Of a stretch of 58,837 nucleotides of DNA, positions 27,140 through 44,929 are shown one piece after another. Position 1 is the stretch's first letter; every line of letters starts with the position of its first letter. This DNA is from a virus (Duplodnaviria; Caudoviricetes). The notes below the pieces were generated by a model, which was given only the letters and a program-made list of their open reading frames with translations, made no database searches and had not been told where the DNA came from. Location: the IMG/VR virus record IMGVR_UViG_3300028025_002566, positions 1-58,837 of that record. One strand, written 5' to 3'. The translations under genes were made by a program, and so were the position numbers.

Positions 27140-27151
27140 ACAAGAGGTAAT

Positions 27152-30100: not shown

Positions 30101-30940
30101 TTCCAGAAGTGGACAGAAGGTTTTTTTAAAGTCACTGGTTTGACTTCAATGACTACCATTACTCGTAATGCTAAGTTAGGTATTGCTGCAGATGCTATCA
30201 ATAGCTGGTTATCTATTGTTAAGTCAGGTGACCCAACAGATCAAGCAGTAATTGATGCCAAAGAACATTTAGTTCGATTAGGTATTGACTATGATTACAT
30301 GAATAATATTACTAAACATAGTATTGATTCAGAACAAAGAGTCTTAGACAACCTTCAAAGAGGTGCATACAACTTTATTAACGAAGCTGTGGTTATTCCT
30401 TCACAACTTAACAGACCTAAGTTCTACAGTGATCCTTACCTTAGATTGTTTACTCAATTCCAAGGCTACACATCTACTTTTACTGCTAACGTATTACCCA
30501 GATTAATTACTGATTTAAACCGTAAGGGTTCAGCAGATCAAGGTAATGCTGCAGCCACTATTGCTATGATGTTTGCTTTAGCTATGCTTGCTTTGTATAT
30601 TAAAGATATGATTAAGTATGGTGAATCACCACCTGAATGGCTCAAGGATGATAAGCAATTCCAAAGAGCTATTGGTCAAATGGGTATTTTAGGTACTGGT
30701 CAACGGGTATGGGATACAGTATCTGATATTACCGGAAACGATAAGTACAGTAAGACTGTTCTTGGCGATGTATATGAAAACATTTCTAATCAATCACCAC
30801 AACTAGCTTATATCAACAGGGTTAACTCAGCCCTCTCTGCCCAAGAAGGCAAAGAAATTGAGAAGGGTGCAAGGCTGCTTCCGATCTTCGGGACATCTCC
30901 CGCCTTTGCTAAATATCTTCAGAAAACACTCGGAGAGTAA
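27152..30940 (+). CDS. Large internal virion protein with an N-terminal thermonuclease-like domain
   Basis: DADT..VRMRGINAAE..DKYNR; C-terminal RLFTQFQGY resembling large podoviral ejection proteins; no Cys. Confidence 0.7.
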   Translation: MDRLEKVLSDIGIDVSSIPRASDFKVGENTLKDADTFTTADGTPVRMRGINAAETSKVDPSRGAFEGSQPGADTQTKIVGDIARQGNFTTPIVTEEVDKYNRRMGDLADPYGNKLTTKLLEMGVVNPSLTPTLDQTNSMYWGRIDRQQRINQGRKTEADLLLDKLNEERNQFGVRAKVFTPDAKSFGASVDDAGRSDYFAGPAIVREGEDRTGKATSNLSTGLDIGFAQMQQGLFGAIDLIGKTTGSEFLSNVGTSNVRALKSELESLPYLRNAEAIDEKGNWKLDSFSKLTDYLVGTAASSAPQMIVSLASAFAAPATFGLSLSAPAAIYTGNVWNEQKEKNAGTALISGITQAALDRLGIAGLVKAPNLNITSTATQELVKAQLLKKGFSKEAAEAMIVKATQASVKDVADAARIVAARQQLGALNIGKAVGMGAVSEGPTEGLQELVQYFGETSSLNVPEGEEYSKLKNRVLNATVGGALLGGTIGGTGAVARNLTFSDKTVNRSNDVEFREQFKGNVPYATEVANEAFNSNQEVSLDKLAEAEAIKRSTQGIPSKLSSWWEDKGISSLWDKWSNTIMGDNVHKSKYTAALATLLGAGNPLNGSSITDQQALLETNIHKHFGTKEEMESMFNGMNSKNISILLSNPKVLDLMERLVRRKKAQFAENMDNVVGKFDLDTELGEYAQYKDGIVEYANRIDNLISTYNNATNSQLRFDDFVEQRPLDKTVVSRYFKQFVSDLSDTLGLSQQEATKIANSVLDNNNINSMEDALDDILNFDVASLKNKDELAKKLYTPENRGKFQKYFSHDIVDNAYTLSARGAAKNINTNLIGKDGSKLAALIQAAKDNGDITEQEASFMAKEIKDFLDMRAGKYHPITNPYVRGALSTVNFLSTITSLPLAAISSTVEFAQVYRNLNKPQSIKATRILLNTFGKEFGSLFKELGASVTNKGTKPVEHRIALSNAGYLREGGIAHRNDIMSGYFQKWTEGFFKVTGLTSMTTITRNAKLGIAADAINSWLSIVKSGDPTDQAVIDAKEHLVRLGIDYDYMNNITKHSIDSEQRVLDNLQRGAYNFINEAVVIPSQLNRPKFYSDPYLRLFTQFQGYTSTFTANVLPRLITDLNRKGSADQGNAAATIAMMFALAMLALYIKDMIKYGESPPEWLKDDKQFQRAIGQMGILGTGQRVWDTVSDITGNDKYSKTVLGDVYENISNQSPQLAYINRVNSALSAQEGKEIEKGARLLPIFGTSPAFAKYLQKTLGE

Positions 30941-30943
30941 ATA

Positions 30944-33900
30944 ATGGCTATTAATGTCAATGTACCTAGTCAGGTACCACCAATCGGTAATAAGTTCTTA
31001 GAACAACAACTTGCCAACCAAGCTGCTGCAAGGGCAAACGCCCAAGCAGAACTTCCTGTTAACATGCAGTCTACTGGTACACCCTTTCAAGGTAATGTAC
31101 CACCTGTACCTACTATGCCAACAGAAGAGGAGTATCAATCTTTTGCTGCTCCTAGTTTCCAACAACAAGAAATGGAACCACAACCCTTTAATGATGTTGT
31201 GGATGTACAAAGGGAAACTCTTTCAGCAACTGGTGAGTTAACTCCTTATGATGTAAGGCTACAACAATTAGAGGCTGAGAAAGCAAAACAAGCTCAGTTA
31301 GCTCAATCAGTTAATATTGATTGGGAATCACAGCAAGAGCTACGGGATGCGTTCCCTGAAGCTGTACTACCTACACAAGCAGGTACTATCCAACGTGCAG
31401 CTAAGGATGTTGGTGAAGCACTGTCTCGTAGTATGGTTAGCCTTACTGAAGAAGGTAGTGCTACACCTGTAGACTTATCCGGTATGACTTATCTTAAGCA
31501 AGGCCTTGGTTTAAGTACTAAGCAAGTAGCTTCTAACATCACATTAGCTGCTAACATGATTGCACCTATGCTTGCTGGTGCTGCTAAAACCGGTAATGGT
31601 GAAATTCAGACTGACGAAAAAGATACATTTGACTACTTGGATTCTATTCTTTCCCAAGAGGGTGATGTAGCTATCCCAAAGAGTGCTGTCAATGGCGGTG
31701 TTCCCTTAGATGTTGTTGAACAAACATTAGGTAGACTAGTTAAAAGTTATGCTAAAGGTACTCAGGTAGATGAGACTAATAATCCATTAGACCCTCGTAC
31801 CATGAAGGGTCAGAACGTAGATGCTCAGTCAGCTGGTGCTACTGCTGTTAACGCTCTTGTTGATGCTGATATTCTTACATTAGATAATGCACTCGATGGT
31901 ACTCGTATCGTTCGATTAAACCCAGTATTTGGTACTGAGTTTTATTCTAATGGCCGTAACTTAAGACGTACTTTAGGTGAGGCTGGTGCAGGTATGTCTC
32001 AGACAGTACCTGTTACTGAAGAGGGTAACTATGCTGGTGCTATGCGTAATATTCGCAGAGGTGATAAACAAAAAGTTAACTTTGAAAAATTAGATAATGT
32101 TACTGAAGCTAAACGTATTGCCGGTAGTATTGGTAGGTTAGTTGGTCCCGGTAAGGCTTATATTGGTGCAATGATGTATGGTAATGCTCTTATTGAAGCT
32201 CAAAATAACCCACAAAACCCTGCACCATTCAGTACTCTTAATTTATTTAAGATTACTAAACGAGATGTAGAAGAAGGTAGCCCTGTTGTTAAGGATAAGT
32301 TAAATAACCTTGGTAAAGAACTTACTATGCTTGCTAATGCTTTAGCTCAAGGTAATCCAAGGTATACCCCTCATTGGGAAGACTATTCAGTACACCGCTT
32401 GTACAACGATACGTTAGACTTTAACGAACAACGTAATAAGTTTACCAGAGGTATTACTAATGGCATTGGTAATCCATTTATGATGGATAGTAATTATCAT
32501 GAGACAGGTGTAAACAGATTTACCGCTGAGAAATACTGGGATAGAGTAGGTAACAAAGCAAGGTCAGGTAACTTTGATGTTGGTAGTTTGTCTTCACAAG
32601 AAAGAGAATTAGGATTCCTAATGACTCTTGGTCGAGTACTAGATGTTGGTCGTACTGTAGGTATGACTACTGAAAACATGACTGCTCCCGGTATCCTTGA
32701 AGCTGTTACTCCTAAGTTCTTGATTGAAGCTGCTCAAGTAGGATCATTATTAAAGTCAATTGTACCATCAACTAAACGCGATATTTATAACGCTATGGTT
32801 GATCCTCAAACGATAGATCCTACTAAGTTAACTAATGAACAGAAAGTTGCTTTACAAACTCTGCTAGATAACTCTGACAGAGAAACTTGGGGTTACGTAC
32901 TACAGGCTTATGTAGATGCATCTAACTATTTGGATGCTAAAAAAGGTAACAAACCATTCCTACCTAAAGCAACTGTAGCTATCGATATGAACTCTGCTGG
33001 TAGAGCGTTCTTAGCTATGGACATTGGTGAGATGAACGTTATTGAGCGTGTTGGTTTGTTATGGGAGTCTGCCGACAGAGATGGTGTATTTGATGACACA
33101 CAACCTGAAGGTAACCCAAGAACTTACTTCGTTGATGTAGCTAAGAAGCAAAGTATTGATAAAGCATTTGGTTTAGATCAACGTGAAAAGGCTTTAAAGT
33201 TTAAAGAACTGCTTAATAAGTATGAGAGCAGAGCATTCAATAAATCATTAGCCAAGAAAGTACTACTTACTACTGATTATGGTAAACCATTAGCTTATCA
33301 CTTAGAAGAAGCAAGAGCCTTCCTTAAAGATCATCCCGATTTTACTGATGAATTAGTAACATACTATAACGGTGATACAGAAGCAGCTATCAAGGACATC
33401 AATGAGATCTTTAAGTTTACACTTAAGGATGTTGTATCTGAATGGCAATTTGTATTACCAAAGAAAATGGTTAAAGTACTTCAGATGCTTGGTCGAGTGC
33501 CACATCCTGAAGGTTTATATGGTGAGAAGATGAGCCTTGGTAATATGAGTCCTGTTGAAACAGGCACTACTGTTACAATTGGTTCAGGCGCTAATGAGCG
33601 TAAGGTAAAGCTTACTCGTGCTATGTTTAACCCATTAGCAGCTGCTAAACCAAAGACATTCGAAGATGGTACTGTATGGGAACCCGGTGAAGGTACTGCC
33701 GCAATTAATCAGATCGGCCCATTACTAGGTCAGTATAGGGAGTCTGCATTAGTCATTGATACAATGAACTATGTTAACGGCGGTAAAGATCCTGCCAAGA
33801 TGATGTATATGTTACCTGTATTCGATAACTTTATTACAGATGCTACCAGTTATCCGTATGTGTTATACACTGCCAACAATATTATTGCACCTAAAGTATT

Positions 33901-34354
33901 TGAATGGGATATCCAAAAACCATTTAAAGAAGATTTTGAAAAGCAGTTAAGAGAAGCTTTTGCTGATATCCAAAAACAAGGTGAGATTGTTATTGATAGT
34001 CGCAGCCCTTATCGTGGTTTATTTGTTACATTAGATCGCGAGTATGGTTATATTCAGGATAGTAAGAACCTATCGCAAGCTCAAAAAGAGTTTAAAGAAG
34101 TATTAGATAACCCTAAGAGTGGTTATGTTAACCCTTCTGAAAGATCAGGAGCTACTGTTCTTACTCCAGCACAAGTAACATTACTTGTAAAAGCTGCTGT
34201 AGTTTATTTTGATATTTCAGGTCAACGATCTGCTAAGTCAAATAATGAAGGTGGTTTAAATAGCTGGATTAATCGTGGATTGGAAAAGAAACGTAAGGCT
34301 ATGGACAAAGTAAAACAAAAAGCTAAACAAGGCAAGATTTATTTCATGACTTAA
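30944..34354 (+). CDS. Putative virion-encapsidated single-subunit RNA polymerase (divergent T7/N4-vRNAP fold)
   Basis: EDYSVHRLY..FNEQRNK (DxxGR region), AIDMNSAG (motif A), KSLAKKVLLTTDYG (motif B), PVFDNF (motif C) in order; no Cys; last gene of the ejection cluster. Confidence 0.75.
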   Translation: MAINVNVPSQVPPIGNKFLEQQLANQAAARANAQAELPVNMQSTGTPFQGNVPPVPTMPTEEEYQSFAAPSFQQQEMEPQPFNDVVDVQRETLSATGELTPYDVRLQQLEAEKAKQAQLAQSVNIDWESQQELRDAFPEAVLPTQAGTIQRAAKDVGEALSRSMVSLTEEGSATPVDLSGMTYLKQGLGLSTKQVASNITLAANMIAPMLAGAAKTGNGEIQTDEKDTFDYLDSILSQEGDVAIPKSAVNGGVPLDVVEQTLGRLVKSYAKGTQVDETNNPLDPRTMKGQNVDAQSAGATAVNALVDADILTLDNALDGTRIVRLNPVFGTEFYSNGRNLRRTLGEAGAGMSQTVPVTEEGNYAGAMRNIRRGDKQKVNFEKLDNVTEAKRIAGSIGRLVGPGKAYIGAMMYGNALIEAQNNPQNPAPFSTLNLFKITKRDVEEGSPVVKDKLNNLGKELTMLANALAQGNPRYTPHWEDYSVHRLYNDTLDFNEQRNKFTRGITNGIGNPFMMDSNYHETGVNRFTAEKYWDRVGNKARSGNFDVGSLSSQERELGFLMTLGRVLDVGRTVGMTTENMTAPGILEAVTPKFLIEAAQVGSLLKSIVPSTKRDIYNAMVDPQTIDPTKLTNEQKVALQTLLDNSDRETWGYVLQAYVDASNYLDAKKGNKPFLPKATVAIDMNSAGRAFLAMDIGEMNVIERVGLLWESADRDGVFDDTQPEGNPRTYFVDVAKKQSIDKAFGLDQREKALKFKELLNKYESRAFNKSLAKKVLLTTDYGKPLAYHLEEARAFLKDHPDFTDELVTYYNGDTEAAIKDINEIFKFTLKDVVSEWQFVLPKKMVKVLQMLGRVPHPEGLYGEKMSLGNMSPVETGTTVTIGSGANERKVKLTRAMFNPLAAAKPKTFEDGTVWEPGEGTAAINQIGPLLGQYRESALVIDTMNYVNGGKDPAKMMYMLPVFDNFITDATSYPYVLYTANNIIAPKVFEWDIQKPFKEDFEKQLREAFADIQKQGEIVIDSRSPYRGLFVTLDREYGYIQDSKNLSQAQKEFKEVLDNPKSGYVNPSERSGATVLTPAQVTLLVKAAVVYFDISGQRSAKSNNEGGLNSWINRGLEKKRKAMDKVKQKAKQGKIYFMT

Positions 34355-34356
34355 GC

Positions 34357-34406
34357 AAATAAAAACCCTACTAGGAATTATCCTGGTAGGGTTATTTTTT
34401 TTTTTT
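34357..34406. terminator. Bidirectional terminator between the two convergent arms
   Basis: aaccctactagga-atta-tcctggtagggtt flanked by an A-tract and a long T-tract. Confidence 0.88.
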
Positions 34407-34701
34407 ATTTAACTGATAGTAATTGATTATACATATCTAGTGCTTGAGCACGATTAGCTCCTGCAACTTCTTTAGCTTCTTCTTCAGTATAAGGGCGACC
34501 TGTCATATCGTTAACGACATTAGGTAATCCTGATACAGATTGTTTGTAAATTTCATTCATCACATATGGACCAAGTTCTTTGGTGTATAGTAGTTCATCA
34601 GGAACATATACACCTACATCGCGCATATCTGCTTGGAATGTATGGTCATCATAATTATGACCGCGTAACGCTTGTACGTTATAGCTTTTTAACTGAGACA
34701 T
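34405..34701 (-). CDS. Hypothetical protein
   Basis: ORF track. Confidence 0.7.
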   Translation of the reverse strand: MSQLKSYNVQALRGHNYDDHTFQADMRDVGVYVPDELLYTKELGPYVMNEIYKQSVSGLPNVVNDMTGRPYTEEEAKEVAGANRAQALDMYNQLLSVK

Positions 34702-35120
34702 GATTTAACCTTCCAATGTAACTTGGAGACACCTGTCATATAGTCTCCGATAAATGTTTCTAAGGCACCGTGACCTTCAGCACCTGCCTCTGTGTAAAGA
34801 ATTTGAGCAGACATGTGAATGCTATCCAGTGCTTTAGTCAAGTCATCTAGCATAGCCTTATCTGTTTTTGCTTTATTATCTAAAGTAAAGTTAGATTCTT
34901 CGGCATATTCTTTAAGACTAGTCATACACATGTTACCCATCTGACGACACTGTTCATTAAGGTCATCGTGGGCAGTGCTTAAATACTCATATACTTCCTG
35001 CAATAATGTATGGTACTGAGGGAAATTAGGACCGGTAATATTTAAATGATATACTTGTGACTTAAAGTATACAATAAAATTATCACTGATCAGTGTTTTT
35101 AGTTTGCTCTGGCAGCTCAT
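34689..35120 (-). CDS. dps: Dps / ferritin-like protein
   Basis: YHLNITGPNFPQYHTLLQEVY...DDLNEQCRQMG, KLHW. Confidence 0.85.
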   Translation of the reverse strand: MSCQSKLKTLISDNFIVYFKSQVYHLNITGPNFPQYHTLLQEVYEYLSTAHDDLNEQCRQMGNMCMTSLKEYAEESNFTLDNKAKTDKAMLDDLTKALDSIHMSAQILYTEAGAEGHGALETFIGDYMTGVSKLHWKVKSCLS

Positions 35121-35229
35121 TATTATCTTTCTGTTCTTGTTCTACTTTCTTTTTACCAAAGATAGTATCCCAATTGTTCTTATATTGTTCTTCGTTAGTA
35201 GGTCTACGACCTGAACCTTTACCTGACAT
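35083..35229 (-). CDS. Small protein (48 aa, MSGKGSGRRP...NWDTIF)
   Basis: Read from sequence; GAGGA SD. Confidence 0.6.
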   Translation of the reverse strand: MSGKGSGRRPTNEEQYKNNWDTIFGKKKVEQEQKDNNELPEQTKNTDQ

Positions 35230-35387
35230 ATTATTCCTCAGCTAGTTTGGTATTACCAAGCTTGTACCGACCGAAACCCATTTGCACTTTAATACCATTA
35301 AGTTCGGTATCAATCCAATAAGCACGATCATCATTAATGTAGTCTTCTTCTGTTAAGGGAGGACACATATCCTCAATATCGTGTTCG

Positions 35388-35756
35388 TTAATCATCGGCT
35401 AATAACTCATGTAAAGATACTGTTGCATCATTGTATTTTTCTGTATTACGGTTCTTACGTAGCTTAACTTCTTTTTGTTTGTTGTTGTACAACTCTTCAA
35501 ATACAGAAATACTATCTGCGTAGTATACCCTTGCAGCTGCAATTTCAGATAGCAACAAGTCAAGTTTATTAAGTTTTTCTTTAGCATCTTTAGGATTCAT
35601 AGCATAGAAGTCTAATGATACCTTACGACTACAATCAGAGATATTAATATCAATATCAATAGAATATTCTGTAAAGTTACCTGTACATTCAATAGCCGCC
35701 ATTCCTTGCTTTTTATTTAAGAACTTACGGGAATGATATTTATTATTCTTTGACAT
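35388..35756 (-). CDS. Hypothetical protein
   Basis: ORF track. Confidence 0.7.
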   Translation of the reverse strand: MSKNNKYHSRKFLNKKQGMAAIECTGNFTEYSIDIDINISDCSRKVSLDFYAMNPKDAKEKLNKLDLLLSEIAAARVYYADSISVFEELYNNKQKEVKLRKNRNTEKYNDATVSLHELLADD

Positions 35757-35885
35757 TAACTTTACCTTGTTGATGCGTACGACCCGGACCCTTCTTAGTG
35801 AAGCTTAGGGATTTACCACGGGAATGTAGTTTAAGTAGTGTTTCGTCACCGAGAATAGTGAAGTAAAATTGTTGTGCTAAATTCA

Positions 35886-36110
35886 TTATGCTAATTCCTT
35901 ATATGCGTTTTCAAATACAGATTTAGGAGACCAAGAAACATATCCTGTATACTGATTGGTATTAGCTTTACCACCATCAGTATACTCTACTAAGAAACCT
36001 TCATCATCTGGATTTTCATCTGCAGGAACAGTCCATCCACGAAAATCATTGTACTGCTGGCGAGTCATTGGAGTTGCATTAACATATTTAATGCCAATAT
36101 ATTTTTTCAT
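35886..36110 (-). CDS. Small KYIG/SWSPK-family phage protein (possible nucleotide-signal sponge)
   Basis: MKKYIG..ATPMTR..GFLVEY..YVSWSPKSVFENAY. Confidence 0.7.
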   Translation of the reverse strand: MKKYIGIKYVNATPMTRQQYNDFRGWTVPADENPDDEGFLVEYTDGGKANTNQYTGYVSWSPKSVFENAYKELA

Positions 36111-36131
36111 TTCATACCTTAGAGTTATTAA

Positions 36132-36208
36132 TGGTATCTCGTAGTCGATTCGAACGACTGACCGACAACTTAGAAGGTTGTTGCTCTATCCAACTGAGCT
36201 AACGAGAT
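36132..36208 (-). tRNA. tRNA-Arg(TCT)
   Basis: Acceptor ATCTCGT/ACGAGAT, anticodon arm ACAAC-CTTCTAA-GTTGT, TTCGAAT, CCA. Confidence 0.92.
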
Positions 36209-36212
36209 ATAA

Positions 36213-36291
36213 GTTGCTCCCTTTATTTTACTATGCGGGAGCTACATAGGACGCCTGTTCCGCAGACGACAACGGCACCTAAGGTAGGGTG
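36213..36291 (-). ncRNA. Candidate structured non-tRNA RNA inside the tRNA array
   Basis: Three hairpins, no T-loop or CCA, fills a whole slot between two tRNAs. Confidence 0.45.
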
Positions 36292-36293
36292 TT

Positions 36294-36367
36294 TGGAAGC
36301 GGGTACTGGATTCGAACCAGTGATGCTGCGAGCTTATGAGACTGCAGTAGTGACCACCTTACCCGCT
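36294..36367 (-). tRNA. tRNA with CAT anticodon (Met), irregular D and anticodon arms
   Basis: Acceptor AGCGGGT/ACCCGCT, loop CTCATAA, GGTTCGAATCC, CCA. Confidence 0.75.
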
Positions 36368-36370
36368 ATT

Positions 36371-36447
36371 TGGTCTCAAGAACCGGACTCAAACCAATAA
36401 CCAATGAATTATGAGTTCACTGCTCTAACCAGTTAAGCTATCTTGAG
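36371..36447 (-). tRNA. tRNA with CAT anticodon (Ile2 or Met)
   Basis: Acceptor CTCAAGA/TCTTGAG, GTGAA-CTCATAA-TTCAT, variant T-loop TTTGAGT, CCA. Confidence 0.8.
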
Positions 36448-36453
36448 TGTTTT

Positions 36454-36529
36454 TGGCATACCCCGTAGGACTTGAACCTACAACCTGTAGATTTGGAATC
36501 CACTGCTCTGCCAATTGAGCTAGAGGCAC
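36454..36529 (-). tRNA. tRNA-Trp(CCA)
   Basis: GTGGA-TTCCAAA-TCTAC anticodon arm, GGTTCAAGTCC, CCA. Confidence 0.9.
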
Positions 36530-36538
36530 ATTTGTTTT

Positions 36539-36626
36539 TGGTGGATGCTCTTGGAATCGAACCAAGTGTGCTCCTTGGAGCGGAGGATTTACAATCCCCT
36601 GAAGTCACCAATGCTTCTCAACATCC
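36539..36626 (-). tRNA. tRNA-Tyr(GTA)
   Basis: GGGGA-TTGTAAA-TCCTC, long variable arm, GGTTCGATTCC, CCA. Confidence 0.9.
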
Positions 36627-36630
36627 TTTA

Positions 36631-36646
36631 CTATTAGGAACCGACT
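36631..36646 (-). promoter_or_regulatory. Putative phage RNAP promoter driving the tRNA array
   Basis: rc AGTCGGTTCCTAATAG; the final G is 5 nt before the tRNA-Tyr 5' end. Confidence 0.8.
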
Positions 36647-36657
36647 AATTAAATAGT

Positions 36658-37635
36658 TTACTTAGTAATACTATCCCAAGACCAGTCACCTTCCATACCG
36701 TTAACTGAGTATTCAGTAACACGTTTCTCAAAGAAGTTATCGTGGGATACACCATTAAGAATCCAGTCTAGCCAAGTTAGTGGATTGTCTTTTACTTTGA
36801 AGTTAGTTTTAAGACCTAGTTGAAGCAATCTACGGTCGGTAATATACCGGATATACTGCTTGACATCTTCTTTAGTGATACCTTCAATATCATATTCAGC
36901 AAATGCTAAGTCAATGAAGTTATCTTCAAGACTTACCACATCACGGGCCATCTGATAGATCTTAGACTTGAATTCATCGTTAACTACTTTAAGATGTTCG
37001 TTACAAAACTCCCTGAATAGTCGTGAGTTACCTTCTACGTGTACAGTCTCATCTCGAATAGACCATTCAACAATAGTACTCATACCCTTCATCTTACCAA
37101 ACCGTTGTAGGTTAAGTAGCATAACAAAGGAAGCAAACAAAGATACACCTTCGTTTAGCACTGATTTAGCTAATGATAGAGCTAAACCAGACTGCGTTGA
37201 AGAGTCGGACCTTGCCATAAAGTCGATCTTGTCCGACATTTCTTTGTAGTCAAGGAACTTATGGAACTCTTCATCAGGTAAACCTAGTGTATCATTAAGC
37301 AAAGCATAAGCACGTTGATGAGTACCTTCACGACCAGCAAAGGAACCAAGCATTACTCGTACTTCATTGTTCTTAAACTTAGGGATTAAGTAGTCATAAT
37401 AGTTTTGCCCTACTTGTACGTCACCTTGAGTAAACAAACGAAGGATATTAGTAATAAAATCCTTTTCACTTTCTGTTAGTTTGATTTTCCAATCATTAAC
37501 ATCTTCAGATAAGTCAGCCTCATCCTCTGTCCAGTGGATTTCTTCGTGTTTCTTAGTAATCTCTACAGCCCACTCGTGATTAAATGGTTTGTAGGTTTTA
37601 GAAAAGTTTAGTAATGATGACATATTATCCTTCAC
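36658..37635 (-). CDS. nrdB: Ribonucleotide reductase class Ia beta subunit
   Basis: REGTHQRAY, EGVSLFASF, RDETVH, NFFEKRVTEYS. Confidence 0.95.
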   Translation of the reverse strand: MKDNMSSLLNFSKTYKPFNHEWAVEITKKHEEIHWTEDEADLSEDVNDWKIKLTESEKDFITNILRLFTQGDVQVGQNYYDYLIPKFKNNEVRVMLGSFAGREGTHQRAYALLNDTLGLPDEEFHKFLDYKEMSDKIDFMARSDSSTQSGLALSLAKSVLNEGVSLFASFVMLLNLQRFGKMKGMSTIVEWSIRDETVHVEGNSRLFREFCNEHLKVVNDEFKSKIYQMARDVVSLEDNFIDLAFAEYDIEGITKEDVKQYIRYITDRRLLQLGLKTNFKVKDNPLTWLDWILNGVSHDNFFEKRVTEYSVNGMEGDWSWDSITK

Positions 37636-39619
37636 AAGCTTTACATTCGTTATCTTCTTCGCTCACTGTTCCGGACCCACTGTCTCGAAAGTGATTATAG
37701 AGTTCATTAAATCCTCCAATATACTTTCCGCTAAGATAGATTTGGGGTAGACTTCTGACATCAGGTCTTCCAGTGATTTCAGCCGCTGACTTACCTGTTG
37801 TAGTAATGTCAACATAGTCATATTGAATTCCTCTTGAGTCAAGGAGCGATTTAGCCATTGAGCATTGGGGACAGTTTGGTTTGCCATAGATAATTGTTTC
37901 TTTTACTTCAGTCAATTTGTTTTCTTCTACTTTTTCAGAGACATTCTCTGCTCGTTGTTTAGCTTCAGTACGTAAATAGTATAACCCTTTAAGACCTTTA
38001 TCCCAAGCAGCGTAGTGTACTGAATTAACGTATGCTCGATCAGAACCTGAAGGGAAAGCTAAGTTAACTGATTGACCTTGACACACATAGGATTGTCGAT
38101 CTGCTGCATGAGTAATAACCCAATGCTGGTCTAATTCAAAGAATGTTTTAAATACATCTTTTGTTTCTTTAGATAAATCTAAATGTTGAATACTACCTTT
38201 ATTAGTAATAATAGAAGACCAAACAGCTTCTGTGTTCATACCTAATGCATCCAGTTTCTTTTCAAGGTACTTATTTTTAACTAAGAAAGAACCTGCCCGT
38301 GTACGGTGTGTGTAGGCGTTAGCCTTATTAGGCTCGATACTAGGAGATGTACTTAAAAGAATACCCGAAGAAGCGTTAGGTGCAATAGCTAGTAAGTGAG
38401 CATTACGTTTACCACTACCAATCATATCAAGAGCTTCACCTCGATATTCACCTAACCAGAAAGTTTCTTTTTCAGCTTGCTGTTTAATCTTACTGAAGAT
38501 AGCAATGTTTTCTAGTCGCGATTTGTCAGATTCAAAAGGAATCCCGTGACGTTGTAGGTATTCATGAAACCCCATAGCACCAAGGCCAATAGATCTCTCA
38601 TGAATAGCTGAGTACTTTGCCCGTGATAAGCTATCAGGTGCGTTCTCAATGAAGTACTCAAGTACGTTATCAAGCATACGTACAAGATCCTCAATCATAT
38701 GAGTGTTCTTCCATACATCATAGTATTCTAAATTAACTGAGGACAAGCAGCATACCGCTGTTCGATCATCGGATGTTGGTAGGTGAATCTCATTGCAAAG
38801 ATTACTACCATAAATCTTAAGACCTTTACTTTTTAGTTCTTCAGGTAAAGCTTCATTAGCTGTATCAATAAAATTTAAGTAAGGCTCACCAGTACGGAAA
38901 CGAGTTTCAAGTAGCTTAGCCCAGACAGTACGTGCATCTAAGAATTCACCTGTATTACCTACCTTAGGGTCAATCAATTCGTACTTACTACCTGTTTTAA
39001 CCGCTTCCATAAATTTGTCTGAGATATTAACAGCGTTATGTAGGTTAAAGCACTTGCGGTTAGTATCTCCTGTAGGAATACGTAGACCAATGAACTCAAG
39101 AATATCAGGATGCTCAATGTTAAGGTAAGCAGCATAAGAACCTTTCCTTGTTTTACCTTGTCGGTAAGCAGTCATATCAGCATCTACTGTATGCAAGAAT
39201 GGAATAGGACCGGGTGCTACATCAGATACTGAACGAACATCAGACCAGTGACCACCAACACCACCACCCATAACTGACAACCAACGTAGTTCAGATGAGT
39301 GATCAATTAAACCTTGTACGGTATCAGGTACATAGGTTAAGAAGCAACTGATAGGTAATCCCTTAGCCTTTTGACCGTCAATAGGTGCGTTAGATAGCAC
39401 AGGTGAGGCAAACATAAACCATTTATTAGATACATAATCATATAAACGCTGTGCTAAATCTTCATCACGTACACCTTTGTATACACTCCAAGCCCATACT
39501 GCCCGTGCAAACACATCTTGAGGTGATGTTTCACCTTCCTTAGCATAGAAATCCATGATCATATCTACAGCATAATCTGTTAGTAAGTTATCACGTACAT
39601 ACTCAATTTTAATGTTCAT
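37625..39619 (-). CDS. nrdA: Ribonucleotide reductase class Ia alpha subunit with fused glutaredoxin
   Basis: PISCF, SNLCNEI, AIAPNASS, KGLYYLR; then YGKPNCPQC..SLPQIY..YIGGF; terminal CKACEG. Confidence 0.93.
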   Translation of the reverse strand: MNIKIEYVRDNLLTDYAVDMIMDFYAKEGETSPQDVFARAVWAWSVYKGVRDEDLAQRLYDYVSNKWFMFASPVLSNAPIDGQKAKGLPISCFLTYVPDTVQGLIDHSSELRWLSVMGGGVGGHWSDVRSVSDVAPGPIPFLHTVDADMTAYRQGKTRKGSYAAYLNIEHPDILEFIGLRIPTGDTNRKCFNLHNAVNISDKFMEAVKTGSKYELIDPKVGNTGEFLDARTVWAKLLETRFRTGEPYLNFIDTANEALPEELKSKGLKIYGSNLCNEIHLPTSDDRTAVCCLSSVNLEYYDVWKNTHMIEDLVRMLDNVLEYFIENAPDSLSRAKYSAIHERSIGLGAMGFHEYLQRHGIPFESDKSRLENIAIFSKIKQQAEKETFWLGEYRGEALDMIGSGKRNAHLLAIAPNASSGILLSTSPSIEPNKANAYTHRTRAGSFLVKNKYLEKKLDALGMNTEAVWSSIITNKGSIQHLDLSKETKDVFKTFFELDQHWVITHAADRQSYVCQGQSVNLAFPSGSDRAYVNSVHYAAWDKGLKGLYYLRTEAKQRAENVSEKVEENKLTEVKETIIYGKPNCPQCSMAKSLLDSRGIQYDYVDITTTGKSAAEITGRPDVRSLPQIYLSGKYIGGFNELYNHFRDSGSGTVSEEDNECKACEG

Positions 39620-39639
39620 TTGTTTCCTTATTGTTGTTA

Positions 39640-39655
39640 GTATTAGGCACCAACT
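39640..39655 (-). promoter_or_regulatory. Putative phage RNAP promoter upstream of nrdA
   Basis: rc AGTTGGTGCCTAATAC. Confidence 0.7.
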
Positions 39656-39664
39656 ATTACGAGA

Positions 39665-41872
39665 TTAGCAGAAAAAGTATTTAGAATCAAGGACTTCTGA
39701 GATATCAAGTGTACCTAGGAGAGGTTGACTGTAACTAAAAGTATCCTTATTAAGCATAAGAGTATCTTGTAGGACATCAAAGAAGTTTTCTACATCATAC
39801 TGTGCAATGAATGTTTGCTTAGTTACTTCCTGTAGAAAATCCACTTCACATGCATGGGTACTAAACGAATCGTGAACAGCACCAAATGAACCATTGAACC
39901 CAACAATAGTATTAGCCATGTGAGCAGCGTCATAGGAATGAACAACATTAGGACTAACACCAGACGCAAAACTACGCCGACAAGGTACACGTTCACCAGT
40001 CTCTTTGTTAAGTACGTCAACTTTAATAACGTGCATGACACGACCGTCCTTATTACCTTGAATACCTTTGATGGTACCTCGTTGTTTTCGTTCGTGTTGT
40101 AGATAAGCTTTATAAACGACAGGAAAGCCACTAGGAGTATGCCAAGTAAGATGATTCCTTCCACTATTAAGTTCATGTTCTGCAATCTTCTGTAAGTATT
40201 TAGTTGTTTTAAGAGGGCCAGCACATACTGTATTGATAGCTTGAATAAGGTTGTTAGCTAATTTATTACAGTCTTCCTCAGTAATGTTATACTTGACTGT
40301 AAAGCCTTCCATATGACAGTCATCATACATATTCTTAGCAATACGTTGTTTACCTGCTGAGTATGCACGAGTCATAGAACCACGTTTAGCAATACCTTTA
40401 CGGATATGTTTCATAGGGATCTGACGATCTTCAAACCAGTCAGGCATTACCGTAATAAGTTCTTTGGCTACAGCCACGTAGAAATCTTTCTGGATAGGTG
40501 TAGGTACTAATGATACCAAAGTACCTGCTTGTTTATCCTTAGACATAGCAGCTAAGTGTTGCCATCCGTTATTACTACCATCGATTGGGATAGGTAAACC
40601 GCTGAAGTATTCTGTACGTAAGATCTTTGCTTTATGGTATCCAGCAATCTCGATACAAGCAGCCAGAAAGCTATAAGGTTTTTCAGCGTTATGCTCGATG
40701 TGTTTAGCACGAGCTGTATTAATAATGAACTCTAAATTGTGTTTAATCCACAATGCACGGTCATCTAGGGTCATCTTATCTACAGAAATAGTATCAAGAC
40801 CTTCTTCATTGAGGTACTTAATATAGTCAGTAGTAAGGTAGTTTAGTCCTTGCAACTCGGCAATGGTATAAGATTTGTTATAGCATGCTGCGGCATGTAC
40901 ACATAACCAGTAGTATGCACGTTCATCAACTCTCTTTTTATTTCCAAATAGGAACAAGGCACGAGCCAAGTCTGAACCTTGGAATTCAAGGAATGATTCT
41001 GCGTAATATACTCGTCCTCTATAGTCACATGACACCTCTTGATAGAATGTTTTGTTACCTACTAACTCAGCCTTCTTAATGACCTGAGTGTACTCAAAGA
41101 ACTTACTAAGCATACGCTGTAACTTAGGGTCTTTCTTACCCATAAACTTAGTACCATCAAGGTGCATAAGCTTCTTAGGTAAGTGAAGGTTTTCATGGTG
41201 AATGTTGTAGAACTGTAGTTCACCATTCTCATCTACTAGATCTAAGATCTCTGGTGGCTTGGCTTCTTTCATAGCAGACAACAAGGGTTGGTTAAGTAAC
41301 CAAGGCTGTTGACGTAAAGCTTCTAAGCTACGAATGAAAGGTTTATCAAGATACTCATGGAATAGCTTGCTGTTAGTCCATCCTTTAATAAATGGATCTT
41401 TAGTCAATTGACTATACAAACCAGCGATAGGTAGCAGTGGTTCAAAAGATGTACCAATAAGAGTAGGTTTAATGTTGTCATCCATGTTAACAATACGGAT
41501 TAAGTAAGGTGCCTTACGACCTTCATACTCGCGGAATATATCGATCAATCCGTCTTGAAGAAATGTTTCTAGAAGAAGATCGCCCAAGGAGAGGGTGGTT
41601 TTGATATCTGTTTCATCAGCACCGATAGCTCTTGCGATTCTTTTGCCGATAAGATCAGATGCGAAGGTGAGCTTAACTGATGCAGAGTGTGTAGCATTTT
41701 TGTTACGGATACAGTATCTAAGAAGACTGTCCCATGCTTCGTTAATAAATCGTTCAAGGTCATACTCCCATGTTGAATGATGTGCCAGAAGACGAGCACC
41801 TTCATTTTGAATCTTATCTGAGTTGAGGATGATCTTCGATACGCGTTCAGTAAGATATTGTAGTGGATTCAT
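39665..41872 (-). CDS. T7-like single-subunit RNA polymerase (735 aa)
   Basis: CDYRGRVY, PIDGSNNGWQH (A), RKGIAKRGSMTRAY (B), PNVVHSYDAAH, AVHDSF (C), SKYFFC end. Confidence 0.95.
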   Translation of the reverse strand: MNPLQYLTERVSKIILNSDKIQNEGARLLAHHSTWEYDLERFINEAWDSLLRYCIRNKNATHSASVKLTFASDLIGKRIARAIGADETDIKTTLSLGDLLLETFLQDGLIDIFREYEGRKAPYLIRIVNMDDNIKPTLIGTSFEPLLPIAGLYSQLTKDPFIKGWTNSKLFHEYLDKPFIRSLEALRQQPWLLNQPLLSAMKEAKPPEILDLVDENGELQFYNIHHENLHLPKKLMHLDGTKFMGKKDPKLQRMLSKFFEYTQVIKKAELVGNKTFYQEVSCDYRGRVYYAESFLEFQGSDLARALFLFGNKKRVDERAYYWLCVHAAACYNKSYTIAELQGLNYLTTDYIKYLNEEGLDTISVDKMTLDDRALWIKHNLEFIINTARAKHIEHNAEKPYSFLAACIEIAGYHKAKILRTEYFSGLPIPIDGSNNGWQHLAAMSKDKQAGTLVSLVPTPIQKDFYVAVAKELITVMPDWFEDRQIPMKHIRKGIAKRGSMTRAYSAGKQRIAKNMYDDCHMEGFTVKYNITEEDCNKLANNLIQAINTVCAGPLKTTKYLQKIAEHELNSGRNHLTWHTPSGFPVVYKAYLQHERKQRGTIKGIQGNKDGRVMHVIKVDVLNKETGERVPCRRSFASGVSPNVVHSYDAAHMANTIVGFNGSFGAVHDSFSTHACEVDFLQEVTKQTFIAQYDVENFFDVLQDTLMLNKDTFSYSQPLLGTLDISEVLDSKYFFC

Positions 41873-41932
41873 ACTTCAGTGTTTAATGTTGAGGCAGTAA
41901 TTATATGCTTGTTTTGGTGTCCAACCGTCACC

Positions 41933-41963
41933 AATAAAAATAACCCCAGGTTTATTGGGGTCT
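41933..41963 (-). terminator. Terminator between primase-helicase and RNAP genes
   Basis: rc aagaccccaa-taaac-ctggggttatttttatt. Confidence 0.65.
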
Positions 41964-42024
41964 TGTCGTTGGCACCTCCACCAAGGAGCATGCCAATAGA
42001 TGTGTGGTTTATAAATAGATTTCA

Positions 42025-43626
42025 TTAATCAAAGTCTACAAAGCTAGCTTGTTTAAGACGACCTGTTTTAGAATCATAAGTAGTACTACCACAGTCACCG
42101 GTCTTACCTGTAAACCGTGACTTAAGTACACGTAGCTTAATAGTATTACGCATCTGCTCAGTCTCAGCAATCATATTACGGGCAAAGGCAATGATATCAA
42201 ACGAGATTTGTTTAATAGAACCTGAACCTTTGATGTCATCAATAGAAGGTAAGTGGCCTTCCTCAAATGGCTTTTCACCTTTACGTAGGTGAGATACAAC
42301 ACCTAACCAAATGTTATGTTTCTTACACAGCTTGAGTAAGTCAGACATCAATGAGTCAATAGCCTCATTACCTGTTTTACCTTTAGAACCCTCAGACACA
42401 GCAATGGTGATGTGGTCAAGGATAATGTACTTACAACCCATTAAAGCAAGACGCTCCATCTTATCTACAAGTGATTCATCACTAACAGAACCTTGGTGAT
42501 CAAGCAATACTAGTCGTTCATCACTGAATACTTCTTCATATGCTTTAAATTGTTCTTCTTCAGATACATTATCTGTAGTAAGATTCTTTTTGAGTTGCAT
42601 ACCAATAAACTTTTCAGCAGTATCACCGATAGATTCTTCTAATGATACCATACCTACCATATCAGGTGTGTTCTTCAGAATGTCTAAGACAATCTCTTTA
42701 ATAACAGTTGATTTACCGCTACCTGTACCTGAAGTAAACAACACGATCTCACCGAGACGCATACCGAATAACTTTTCATTTAAAGAATCTAAACATTCAG
42801 GATAAGGCAGTGATACAATAGACTGTTTAAGTTTAAATTGTTCCCATACAGCAGCACCCTTAACAATACCAGCAGGACTCATCTCTTTGGCATTGAAGAT
42901 ACAACTCATTAGTACATCTGAGCTATGCTTAATTAGTACTTCACAAGGATCTTTCTCAGGTAGAATACATAGTTTAACTTTATCATAGCCGATAATCTTA
43001 GCAGCTTCTTGAGCAGCCTTTTGACCGGGTTCATCCATGTCAAATGCTAATACTACTTCATCAAAGCTCCTTAACCATTCACGTTGTGCAAGAATGAGAG
43101 ACTTAGAGCTAGCCGATGGGACCGCCACCGCTGGATAAAATCGTTGATACTTATCGTATTGTGCTTGAGCAACTGCCAGAGCATCGAGTTCACCTTCAGC
43201 GATAATGATTCGTTTACCACCACTAACGGTGTTTTGACCGAAGAACTGTACATCTTTAAAGTCTCCGTGAATGATAAACTTCTTAGGTAACTGGCGTTCT
43301 TTGTATGCCACAACCATTCCGTCTTTAGTGTACGGATAGAAATGGCTAGCGATAGTACCATCTTCAGCATAAGAAACTTTAACTCCATAATGTGCTGCAA
43401 TTACTTTCTTGATATCACGTTCTTGAAAGCCACGGGTATCATATGTTTCGATTTCAGATAGAGTGTGCATTGAGTAATTTTCTTTGTATGTGTTTGCTTT
43501 TACTTCACCATTAATAGGTGATGACTTGTTACAACTAAAACAGAAACCCCATTCATCTTCATCTTTATATGAGAATGCATCTGAGGAATTACACTTAGGA
43601 CATGGTGCATGATACCATCTAGACAT
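42025..43626 (-). CDS. DNA primase-helicase (T7 gp4-like)
   Basis: CPKC..CFSC zinc finger, EGELDAL TOPRIM, DMDEPG, SGTGSGKST, ILDHI, VSHL, KGSGSIKQ, KSRFTG. Confidence 0.95.
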   Translation of the reverse strand: MSRWYHAPCPKCNSSDAFSYKDEDEWGFCFSCNKSSPINGEVKANTYKENYSMHTLSEIETYDTRGFQERDIKKVIAAHYGVKVSYAEDGTIASHFYPYTKDGMVVAYKERQLPKKFIIHGDFKDVQFFGQNTVSGGKRIIIAEGELDALAVAQAQYDKYQRFYPAVAVPSASSKSLILAQREWLRSFDEVVLAFDMDEPGQKAAQEAAKIIGYDKVKLCILPEKDPCEVLIKHSSDVLMSCIFNAKEMSPAGIVKGAAVWEQFKLKQSIVSLPYPECLDSLNEKLFGMRLGEIVLFTSGTGSGKSTVIKEIVLDILKNTPDMVGMVSLEESIGDTAEKFIGMQLKKNLTTDNVSEEEQFKAYEEVFSDERLVLLDHQGSVSDESLVDKMERLALMGCKYIILDHITIAVSEGSKGKTGNEAIDSLMSDLLKLCKKHNIWLGVVSHLRKGEKPFEEGHLPSIDDIKGSGSIKQISFDIIAFARNMIAETEQMRNTIKLRVLKSRFTGKTGDCGSTTYDSKTGRLKQASFVDFD

Positions 43627-43627
43627 A

Positions 43628-43786
43628 TTAGTTCCAGTATTCTTGATCTTCTTTTAACTCACGTATAGTTCGCCTACGTTCTTTGGCTTGCTTCTGTGTT
43701 TGTTTCTTTTGTTTGTATTGTTGTTCAAACTCTTGTTTAAAGTTAATGTACTCTTCAATATCTTTAGGTTGATTATGCTTCTTCAT
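43628..43786 (-). CDS. Small basic protein (52 aa, MKKHNQPK...)
   Basis: Read from sequence; fills the gap between the endonuclease and primase genes. Confidence 0.55.
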   Translation of the reverse strand: MKKHNQPKDIEEYINFKQEFEQQYKQKKQTQKQAKERRRTIRELKEDQEYWN

Positions 43787-44204
43787 AACTCTTAGGTTTT
43801 AAAAACTTGACGGCTCCAATGTTGCCATTGTACCAGACACGCTTTCCATTAGGTAGTTCATCTCGTGATAAGACTTCACATTGCCATTGCTCATGCACTT
43901 CGCTGTATGTAAGATCTCCGGGACCAACGCACCATTTGTAGATAACAAATGTAAAAGCTTCAGATCCGTAGAGTTTAATATCATCAAGGAGTTCTCGGCA
44001 ACTTGATAGGTATGTGCGCCAATCAGACTCCTTGCGTGTGACAGTACGGCGGCTTGCTCCGGGCTTAAGTTTTCTTGAGACACTTATTAGTTGCTTTCTT
44101 CCAATGTATCGTCTTCCTGTTTCAAGGTTTTCGATGTAGTAGATGAATCCAAAGGCATTGTCTGGTCTGTCTGTGAGAGGGTACCAGTGTCCGTAGTCTT
44201 CCAT
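43773..44204 (-). CDS. GIY-YIG-like endonuclease
   Basis: GFIYYIENLETGRRYIGRK, YNGNI. Confidence 0.75.
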   Translation of the reverse strand: MEDYGHWYPLTDRPDNAFGFIYYIENLETGRRYIGRKQLISVSRKLKPGASRRTVTRKESDWRTYLSSCRELLDDIKLYGSEAFTFVIYKWCVGPGDLTYSEVHEQWQCEVLSRDELPNGKRVWYNGNIGAVKFLKPKSYEEA

Positions 44205-44929
44205 TTAAATTTCTCTTTTAGTTCTTCTAGTGTTAATGGTTTAAAATCATCACTATTCATTCGGATATAGATAAGATTAGCTGATTTGTGAAGAGCATGT
44301 TGCCATTCATTACCACATTTGAGCTTATAGGTATCAATTACCTTATCAAACATGTGCTCATAGGTTACATCCTTAAGAATCTTTTCAGCAGTCTTAGGGC
44401 CAAGACCTTTAATACCTTGGATATTATCTGTAGCATCTCCTGTAAGGACTTGTTTCATCAGGTTGTAGTAACCTTCTTCAGGTGTAACATGGTAAAATTC
44501 TTTCTTACGAAAGTTATAATGCCAACCGGGAATCATATCAAGGTCTTTATCGATGTGACATACTACGTATGACTCATCAGCATTCATAGCTAACTGAGCA
44601 GCAACCCCACAGTAGTCATCTGCTTCTGCTTCATCTGACTCAACACAAAAGTCTTTGGCATAACCATAAAGCATCTCAATACGGTCTTTTACTTCAGGCT
44701 CAATAGTATCTTTACGATTACCTTTGTAGTCTACTGCTACATGATATCGAAAGTTATTAGCACCCTTAATAAATACCAAACCATTATCTGCTTCAGTAGC
44801 TGTCATAATCTCTTGTAATGAGCTATCTAAAGCTTTCTTACATAGAGCAGGTGACGGTTGGACATGTGCAATCTGATACAGAATAGAATCTGCATCAATA
44901 ATAGCATGTTTAAATTGTAGTTCTTCCAT
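44087..44929 (-). CDS. 5'-3' exonuclease (T7 gp6-like)
   Basis: IDADS, NFR..YKGNR, EADD, DKDL, GDATDNIQGIKGLGPKTA. Confidence 0.92.
   Translation of the reverse strand: MEELQFKHAIIDADSILYQIAHVQPSPALCKKALDSSLQEIMTATEADNGLVFIKGANNFRYHVAVDYKGNRKDTIEPEVKDRIEMLYGYAKDFCVESDEAEADDYCGVAAQLAMNADESYVVCHIDKDLDMIPGWHYNFRKKEFYHVTPEEGYYNLMKQVLTGDATDNIQGIKGLGPKTAEKILKDVTYEHMFDKVIDTYKLKCGNEWQHALHKSANLIYIRMNSDDFKPLTLEELKEKFKWKTTDTGTLSQTDQTMPLDSSTTSKTLKQEDDTLEESN

Follow-up and report, generated by a model that had tools for sequence, protein, structure and literature searches.

Which RNA polymerase would transcribe the incoming genome of a phage that encodes two such enzymes, and which would serve its later genes? 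The question is raised by the IMG/VR virus record IMGVR_UViG_3300028025_002566, a whole record of 58,837 nt with a completeness estimate of 95%, which we analyzed over its full length and refer to as the window. An earlier note had described two very divergent single-subunit RNA polymerase (ssRNAP) genes on opposite strands, one of 1136 codons in the virion arm and one of 735 codons between primase-helicase and nrdA. Both open reading frames (ORFs) were recovered with these coordinates, lengths and neighbors (Table 1), and their divergence is borne out by hhalign, which gave a probability of 0.09% for the 1136-amino-acid (aa) family against the 735-aa RNA polymerase (RNAP) of the window. We estimate a probability of roughly 0.6 that the two enzymes have different roles, with an ejected 1136-aa enzyme acting early and the 735-aa enzyme serving middle and late genes.

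Fold and active site of the 1136-aa protein

Searches by sequence did not assign the 1136-aa protein to any family in Pfam or PHROGs, and tblastn against 50,697 phage records yielded no match. In the PDB nothing was found by phmmer or with a profile of 26 sequences, which missed the chains of the N4 mini virion RNAP (mini-vRNAP) even at E ≤ 10. When 26 family members were compared with PHROGs the best E-value was 0.0054, none fell below 0.005, and neither a coherent family nor a virion RNAP (vRNAP) family emerged. Sequence homology to gp50, the vRNAP of N4, was not detected in PHROGs, with the PDB profile or among the representatives listed from a profile search. That search, carried out with the family profile against 1.84 billion representatives, returned 162 clusters at E ≤ 1e-3. 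Among the best 150 of the 162 representatives full-length proteins measured 1000–1440 aa, the longest entry being 1696 aa and the next 1438 aa, and the 10 clusters of distant members that were checked for names carried only ‘hypothetical protein’ or none.

A first metagenome search had yielded 37 homologues, of which 26 were aligned for an AlphaFold2 (AF2) model; 11 judged to be near-duplicates or truncated forms were omitted. The model reached a pLDDT of 82.8 and a pTM of 0.83. Foldseek returned 73 PDB matches at E ≤ 1e-3, and all among the matches listed are single-subunit RNAPs: T7 RNAP (8.6e-13), yeast mitochondrial RNAP (1.0e-12), human mitochondrial RNAP and N4 mini-vRNAP (2po4, 1.5e-10; 3c3l, 1.9e-10), with alignments spanning 920–1335 columns. 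In BFVD 52 matches were obtained at E ≤ 1e-3. The best of them (4.1e-15) is segment 2 of the giant vRNAP of Vibrio phage 1.152.O (Nahantvirus, Schitoviridae), and others are T7-like RNAPs and segments of N4-like vRNAPs. On the evidence of the model the 1136-aa protein is confirmed as a second, very divergent ssRNAP. The earlier note had called it an RNAP, and that identification holds through the predicted fold and the conserved, presumably catalytic residues rather than through a sequence match.

For the conservation counts all 143 stored family members of at least 1000 aa were aligned. D681, D961 and R485 are kept in all 143, R502 and Y779 in 142, and G780 in 138; K771 is likewise kept in 138 and replaced by R in the remaining five. 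Identity to the query falls to 28% already within the 26-sequence alignment. In the model a beta strand ends with D681 and leads into a helix, D961 lies in a beta turn between two strands, and K767-x3-K771 in a helix followed by Y779-G780; this predicted layout corresponds to that of motifs A, B and C. The spacing K767-x3-K771-x7-Y779-G780 is the same as in what we take to be motif B of T7 RNAP (R627/K631/Y639/G640). Residues of the TxxGR, A, B and C type on an ssRNAP fold are also what characterizes the N4-type virion RNAP; according to an excerpt of PMC4496689, N4 mini-vRNAP retains motifs A, B and C and TxxGR.

Because the active-site positions are invariant while identity within the family drops below 30%, these data favor an active polymerase over a fold that serves structure alone. 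The protein could instead have been taken over for a purely structural role, in ejection or as a channel in the inner membrane, and retain the polymerase fold without activity. Its undetectable sequence similarity to active RNAPs, the modest TM-scores of the model and the position of the gene, where T7-like phages have non-enzymatic ejection proteins, would all suit such a role. We consider it very unlikely: both presumed metal-binding Asp residues and R485 (143/143), the motif-B Lys (138/143) and Tyr (142/143) persist at identities below 30%, a pattern that points to selection on catalysis, and a separate gp16-like ejection protein is already encoded upstream.

Ejection operon and cysteine content

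The 1136-aa gene closes a tight block with gaps of 3–12 nt; it starts 3 nt past the gp16-like ORF, and the transglycosylase gene lies two ORFs upstream. The five consecutive ORFs at 22815–34354 (3835 aa) contain no cysteine at all, in contrast to 10–11 cysteines each in the 735-aa RNAP, the DNA polymerase, the primase-helicase and nrdA. Cysteine is equally rare in the relatives of the 1136-aa protein: 129 of the 143 have none, nine have one and five have two. The vRNAP of N4 is Cys-free as well, which has been interpreted as a requirement for passage via tail and periplasm (excerpt of PMC3821669), and in the ejection operon of Schitoviridae the vRNAP is the third protein (excerpt of PMC13434306).

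The two giant neighbors of the 1136-aa protein resemble ejection proteins. By tblastn the 1039-aa protein matches tail-injection transglycosylases, and residues 829–1118 of the 1262-aa protein are ∼23% identical to a 1056-aa ‘constituent protein’ of PaP3-like Bruynogheviruses. From its size and position the latter is probably the counterpart of gp53 of phage Pa223, a gp16-like ejection protein of ∼1000 aa that, according to an excerpt of the Pa223 preprint, mass spectrometry detected in virions. A reading of the three giant ORFs (3437 aa together) as the domains of N4 gp50 in separate genes was rejected, as the 1039- and 1262-aa proteins match the transglycosylase and Bruynoghevirus ejection proteins instead. 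No Schitoviridae record was found for them among the best 25 of 51 and the best 25 of 432 records.

Sequence divergence was compared between the two polymerases. In the 16 closest full-length orthologues the identity to the window copy ranges from 32 to 90% for the 1136-aa protein and from 59 to 91% for the T7-type RNAP; at three distant loci (L034, L037 and L038) the values are 26–34% and ∼38%. Judged by these identities the 1136-aa protein evolves like a virion protein, faster than the T7-type enzyme. Since it is Cys-free, sits in the ejection operon at the place of the Schitoviridae vRNAP and evolves at a virion-like rate, we infer that it is packaged and ejected.

One could also imagine a non-packaged polymerase that works late or as an accessory enzyme in the cytoplasm, with early transcription left to host RNAP as in phiKMV-like phages. 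The 735-aa RNAP gene is placed at the end of the replication arm, like that of phiKMV; the 1136-aa gene would be transcribed with the late genes from the promoter at 16465, and a sigma-70-like site with 10/12 matching positions is present at 58603–58575 (−). A cytoplasmic location would make the absence of cysteine from 129/143 relatives and from the four upstream ORFs hard to explain, given that the cytoplasmic enzymes checked here have 1–11 cysteines. It would also leave unaccounted for that the gene ends the block of ejection proteins and that its product changes as fast as virion proteins, and the enzyme would duplicate the 735-aa RNAP, whose promoters already precede late genes. We therefore regard this alternative as quite unlikely.

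The T7-type polymerase and its probable promoters

The 735-aa ORF gave the sole PF00940 match of the genome (5.4e-56, 190.7 bits at a cut-off of 22). In PHROGs it matched phrog_414 (2.8e-98, 331 bits) and, with 91 bits, the N4-like phrog_2166; by sequence it retrieved T7 RNAP chains from the PDB (3.2e-28). The best PDB matches of its AF2 model (pLDDT 85.6) in Foldseek are T7 promoter and initiation complexes (3e2e, 3.6e-27; 1cez, TMq 0.72), and no N4 RNAPII chain is among the matches listed. With 331 bits for phrog_414 versus 91 bits for phrog_2166 and no N4 RNAPII among those fold matches, the enzyme is plainly T7-type and not RNAPII-type. Alignment with phrog_414 begins at residue 179, and the N-terminal domain is shorter than that of T7 RNAP (735 versus 883 aa for the whole enzymes). 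The protein contains 11 cysteines, the stretches PIDGSNNGWQH, KRGSMTRAYSAG and AVHDSFS, and the C-terminus ...YFFC. D431, G432, K492, K496, R497, Y504, H667 and D668, which we presume to belong to the catalytic motifs A, B and C by comparison with T7, are invariant in 17/17 aligned orthologues. A beta-hairpin (592–600/611–619) is predicted in the model at the position of the T7 specificity loop.

The earlier note had also described this second polymerase as short and unsplit, and it is indeed encoded in one ORF. In two relatives the gene is broken by an insert of ∼700 nt (L020, 15804–16530, −; L030, 6030–6735, −). The insert point lies exactly within motif A, between PIDGSNNG and WQHLAAMS, and the insert carries a GIY-YIG-like ORF of 165–176 aa. 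A true N4-like split was rejected as the explanation, since a scan of the L020 insert identified it as a group I intron (RF00028, 71.8 bits at a gathering score of 50, E 5.5e-18); the insert of L030 is similar in size and position.

Upstream of phage genes we found a recurring sequence, GGTACCTAATAG, which at ≤2 mismatches occurs at 19 sites where 6.06 ± 2.19 were expected; 0/100 shuffles reached 19. Nine of these sites are intergenic and co-oriented with genes, and the other ten, which are coding or counter-oriented, were set aside. The extended consensus is approximately nTTAGnCGGTACCTAATAGnA, comprises ∼18 nt and ends in ...TAATAG. Promoters of the T7 and SP6 class are of like length and layout. 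Within 90 nt past the RNAP stop codon the core is present in 11 of 19 relatives, variants occur in three, and none is found in five. Counts over whole genomes of relatives were eight sites in G002, six in G007 and seven in G009 (reversed control, 0), two in G027 and none in G025. G012 has no canonical site and five TG(A/T)CCCCTAATA sites (three exact, two with one mismatch), and G022 has one variant and no canonical site. In the second strand of the specificity hairpin RVMHV is replaced by RINHV in the enzymes of these two and in no other of the 17 aligned RNAPs. Their RNAPs are 65% identical and not mutual nearest relatives; that of G012 shares 80% identity with enzymes of canonical-promoter genomes. 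From the conserved site positions and the co-variation of promoter and specificity loop we conclude, with moderate confidence, that the GGTACCTAATAG promoter belongs to the 735-aa enzyme. The promoter flanks TTAG...CTAA were considered as a possible stem and rejected, as no co-variation was seen.

Because its sites precede replication genes, the tRNA cluster, terL and later virion genes, the 735-aa enzyme can account for the transcription of middle and late genes, the 1136-aa gene among them. In its PF00940 domain, its fold match to T7 initiation complexes, its sequence stretches, the specificity-loop hairpin and the ∼18-nt double-stranded promoter it resembles the RNAPs of T7- and phiKMV-type Autographiviridae. 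Close to the right end a + strand ORF of 142 aa (57004–57432) without a family lies within the leftward arm. The core at 57474 (−) is located just past its stop codon, with a hairpin (57438–57459) in between, and transcription from the promoters at 56984 (+) and 57474 (−) would be convergent and overlapping.

The scheme that we favor would operate as follows. The 1136-aa polymerase would be made late, as the product of the last gene in the ejection-protein operon, packaged in the capsid and ejected with the DNA through the periplasm, a passage that would explain its lack of cysteines. It would start to transcribe the incoming genome before any phage protein synthesis, possibly making the phage independent of host RNAP, and might also help to pull the DNA in. 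In this role it would correspond to the 1106-aa polymerase domain of the 3500-aa N4 vRNAP, existing here as a protein on its own. The 735-aa RNAP would be made from the leftward replication arm, read the extended consensus and transcribe middle and late genes, among them that of the ejected polymerase. We hypothesize that this constitutes a variant of the N4-type virion-polymerase strategy, with an ejected ssRNAP and a second ssRNAP that is made early.

Several observations weigh against this scheme. The 1136-aa protein has no sequence-level link to any known RNAP in Pfam, PHROGs, the PDB or by hhalign, and the TM-scores of its model against ssRNAPs of the PDB are modest (0.34–0.54), as expected for a flexible multi-domain enzyme. 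Its motifs A, B and C were assigned from the T7 motifs and from the secondary structure of the model, not from a residue-level superposition. The co-variation of promoter and specificity loop comes from two lineages, one of which has a single site. For the 1136-aa enzyme no promoter class was found: a survey of intergenic 8-mers gave only the CCTAATAG family and T-rich terminator tails, and a whole-genome k-mer survey for a second class was swamped by codon bias. Recurring short hairpins like the N4 promoters (5–7 bp stem, 3-nt loop) were not found in 1–2000 and 57400–58837, where a few could escape, N4 itself having only three sites.

A further difficulty concerns the location of the 735-aa RNAP gene. 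About 18 kb separate it from the point at which the leftward arm presumably starts, and in most relatives the gene lacks its own promoter. In most of them it directly adjoins the primase-helicase gene, starting within ∼15 nt of the upstream gene in 11 of the 17 relatives other than L003 and L004. The first polymerase would need long read-through past terminator-like hairpins such as that at 56040–56016, or else low-level read-through could prime a positive loop from the promoter at 48849. The sigma-70-like site mentioned above would also allow early work by host RNAP. Such sites are not enriched in three regions (11 versus 7.1 ± 3.1, 16 versus 22.7 ± 5.5 and 20 versus 28.2 ± 5.5), though the promoters of the host may be of another type. 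Between the RNAP and primase-helicase genes of the window (41876–42025) we observed a 49-aa ORF and a hairpin with a 7-bp stem and a T run (41942–41962), an arrangement present only in the window, L003 and L004.

The missing promoter class bears on a further possibility, namely that the 1136-aa protein is active and ejected and has a mainly mechanical task: transcription from the entering end would pull the genome in, as host and T7 RNAP do in T7 and the vRNAP in N4, and the messages that matter would be supplied by the 735-aa enzyme or by host RNAP. The operon context and the lack of cysteine fit this equally well, and T7-style promoters start already at 58614, near the beginning of the leftward arm. 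By sequence such a task is inseparable from early transcription by the ejected enzyme; pulling by transcription would itself need a start site, and none was identified. We consider a mainly mechanical role unlikely and retain early transcription by the ejected polymerase as the favored function.

Relatives, lineage and genome layout

We asked whether the two polymerases occur together in other genomes, a search of IMG/VR that the earlier note had suggested. PF00940 is also present in 29 of the 36 records that carry the 1136-aa family, both genes occur in 9/9 records that are at least 90% complete, and the seven records without PF00940 are fragments with a completeness of 28–54%. The polymerase pair is a trait of the lineage.

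The best phage match of the 735-aa RNAP in the collection of 50,697 records is Roseobacter phage CRP-7 (MK613349), with 31% identity. Its gp33 (1235 aa), annotated as hypothetical, was missed by tblastn with the 1136-aa protein of the window. In hhalign it matches the family profile across 730 columns (probability 84.8%, E 6.5e-6), and the matched part covers the Asp and K...YG stretches of the family. No relative of gp33 was found in other cultured phages; CRP-7 is the only cultured relative. Its gp33, gp34 and gp35 contain no cysteine in 3826 aa, compared with 14 cysteines in the CRP-7 RNAP. The genomes are alike in the order of DNA polymerase, exonuclease, primase and RNAP, followed by a convergent arm that ends in three giant Cys-free ORFs, and in a tRNA-Arg(TCT). 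Apart from their distance, they differ in that CRP-7 has a cobalamin-dependent ribonucleotide reductase and glutaredoxin as a separate gene, compared with class I nrdAB here. In excerpts of the CRP-7 paper (PMC6918029) ORF30 is the sole named RNAP, the giant ORFs are hypothetical, and CRP-7 is described as a new group whose lineage is ubiquitous in marine viromes. As this nearest cultured phage is ‘unclassified Caudoviricetes’ in the taxonomy, the lineage is poorly described, as the earlier note had supposed. Sequence-only annotation overlooked a second polymerase, gp33, in a cultured phage, and its being cultured makes the two-polymerase hypothesis directly testable.

The full-text literature, supplements aside, yielded no account of a phage that combines a T7-type RNAP with a small free-standing vRNAP. 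What comes closest is a guess for phage StenR_269 that is based on size and composition (excerpt of PMC10747016). As far as the literature search reaches, the two-polymerase architecture is real and undescribed.

Comparison with N4 and other Schitoviridae reveals a number of parallels. In both cases a very divergent, Cys-free ssRNAP is encoded with ejection proteins near the point where the gene arms converge, and a second, smaller ssRNAP (in N4 RNAPII, gp15+gp16) is encoded in the early/middle arm. The 1136 aa found here compare with 1106 aa of the N4 polymerase domain (gp50 mini-vRNAP, residues 998–2103), and among viral proteins its fold is matched best by a vRNAP segment from Schitoviridae. 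However, the 1136-aa protein shows no sequence similarity to the ∼3500-aa gp50, is free-standing and lacks both the N-terminal domain (∼1000 aa, injection) and the C-terminal domain (∼1400 aa, encapsidation). In DEV and N4 the vRNAP takes the place of gp16 (excerpt of PMC13434306), whereas a separate gp16-like protein exists here. N4 RNAPII is split and cofactor-dependent, in contrast to the one-piece T7-type enzyme with its specificity loop. N4 relies on host RNAP for late genes (same excerpt), whereas T7-style promoters precede late genes in the window. The genome of N4 is also larger (∼70 versus 58.7 kb).

The window phage is no Schitovirus, because its virion-arm enzyme has only the size of the N4 catalytic domain and no sequence link to gp50, because the gp16-like protein coexists with the polymerase instead of being replaced by a vRNAP, and because the second RNAP is one-piece, promoter-specific and T7-type, with phage promoters that cover late genes too. 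It is no Autographivirus either, owing to genome size, convergent arms and the second polymerase; we know of no member of the Autographiviridae with a second polymerase or with a genome of ∼59 kb that combines one with convergent arms. The proposal of the earlier note that the architecture is intermediate between T7 and N4 is apt as a description of the layout and conjectural as an evolutionary position; the 1136-aa family reaches neither N4 vRNAP nor T7 RNAP by sequence. A packaged RNAP for pre-early genes, a non-virion RNAP for later ones and independence of the host enzyme are also reported for phiKZ and other jumbo phages, for Thermus phage P23-45 (a vRNAP fused to the tape measure protein plus an nvRNAP) and for the vRNAP of crAss-like phi14:2. 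Those enzymes are of the two-barrel multisubunit type, whereas both polymerases of the window are right-hand single-subunit enzymes.

The vRNAP has been called ‘unique to this family’ with respect to Schitoviridae (excerpt of PMC13434306); here a packaged ssRNAP, treated as an N4-like hallmark, is proposed in another podovirus lineage. We tentatively suggest, while thinking it somewhat more probable that this generalization goes too far, that free-standing, Cys-free mini virion RNAPs form a large family outside Schitoviridae (at least 162 clusters at 50% identity) that is wholly unannotated and, paired with a T7-type enzyme, supports a host-RNAP-free programme in aquatic podoviruses. If so, the giant N4 vRNAP could have arisen by fusion of a free-standing ejected polymerase with ejection modules, or the free-standing form by fission. 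The 1136-aa protein would offer a minimal natural system for polymerase packaging, threading through the tail and refolding, and a means to learn if N4 vRNAP depends on its N- and C-terminal domains in cis. It adds a new and very divergent branch to the right-hand RNAPs and, together with the compact 735-aa T7-type enzyme and its defined promoter, may also be useful for orthogonal transcription parts.

With ∼58.7 kb the window represents a near-complete genome, which belongs to an uncultured CRP-7-type podovirus. Two gene arms converge, the + arm running from terL (1982) to 34354 and the − arm from the right end to 34405. Along the + arm follow terL, an SU10-type portal, scaffold, major head protein, tail fibre, holin/endolysin, PhoH, tail proteins and the three giant ORFs. 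The − arm begins with small ORFs, a protein like single-stranded DNA-binding protein, RNA ligase, DNA ligase, dCMP deaminase, family-A DNA polymerase and exonuclease, and continues with primase-helicase, the 735-aa RNAP, nrdA-glutaredoxin, nrdB and four tRNAs. The coordinates of individual features are compiled in Table 1.

Table 1. Positions of genes, promoter cores and other elements in the window
Feature	Position	Strand	Basis or remark
Promoter core GGTACATAATAG	1926..1937	+	Upstream of terL; conserved there in 5/5 relatives examined
Portal, SU10 portal family	3844-6120	+	PF23899 1.3e-123
Promoter core, exact GGTACCTAATAG	16465..16476	+	In virion arm; nearest upstream of ejection operon and 1136-aa gene
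Two small Cys-free ORFs, 217 and 181 aa	22815..24010	+	Start of Cys-free block; no PHROG family
Cys-free ejection protein, 1039 aa, lytic transglycosylase domain	24020..27139	+	phrog_7182 tail injection transglycosylase 4e-24, phrog_873
Cys-free gp16-like ejection (internal virion) protein, 1262 aa	27152..30940	+	phrog_6958 virion structural protein 9.6e-34
Cys-free 1136-aa protein, ssRNAP fold, proposed compact virion RNAP	30944..34354	+	AF2/Foldseek; last gene of virion arm
Intrinsic-terminator-like hairpin, 13-bp stem and T run	34364..34393	+	10 nt past stop of 1136-aa gene, at arm convergence
tRNA cluster Arg(TCT), Met(CAT), Trp(CCA), Tyr(GTA)	36132-36626	-	Directly downstream of promoter core at 36631
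Promoter core GGTTCCTAATAG	36631..36642	-	Ahead of the four-tRNA cluster
nrdA, class I ribonucleotide reductase large subunit	37625-39619	-	C-terminal glutaredoxin domain, residues 576-634, PF00462 4.7e-14
Promoter core GGTGCCTAATAC	39640..39651	-	Between RNAP gene and nrdA
One-piece T7-type RNAP, 735 aa	39665..41872	-	PF00940, phrog_414, fold; between primase-helicase and nrdA
Primase-helicase	42025-43626		DnaB_C/Toprim
Promoter core GGTACCTAATAC	48849..48860	-	Nearest such promoter upstream of 735-aa RNAP gene
Weaker promoter-like core GATACCTTATAG	52440..52451	-	2 mismatches; within a possible 49-aa ORF
Promoter core, exact	56984..56995	+	9 nt ahead of + strand ORF 57004-57432, inside leftward arm
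Promoter core, exact	57474..57485	-	Leftward arm
Promoter core, exact	58614..58625	-	First of its kind on leftward arm

SU10 is a phiEco32-like phage with an elongated head, and the portal family hints at a possible link of the window phage to phiEco32-like phages. The tail fibre gene (1152 aa) contains 21-nt (7-residue) tandem repeats at 11014–11520 (+), with 14 overlapping copies of an 87-nt unit.

An exact direct repeat of 126 nt is present at the contig ends (1–126 = 58701–58826), where the final 11 nt diverge (6 mismatches). It falls within a 74-aa ORF (58644..168 on the joined sequence), and for this reason it looks less like physical ends than like an overlap left by the assembly of a circularly permuted or concatemeric genome. 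Between the diverging arms lies a stretch of ∼680 nt (1300–1980) with skewed composition (C/A-rich on the + strand) that is probably non-coding. It contains the palindrome GGGGTACCCC at 1819–1828, which three of five relatives (L039–L043) keep and two have in degenerate form, as well as a CACACA(G/A)AGA element found in all five. This stretch could be the site of genome ends, a packaging site, an origin or a location of early promoters. DNA nearly identical to 34000–43900 was found mostly in runs labelled as subsurface, shale-gas and lake-water metagenomes, with shares of 0.96, 0.56, 0.47 and 0.44. No RNA run was among those listed, which speaks neither for nor against expression; the best-matching run is possibly the source sample.

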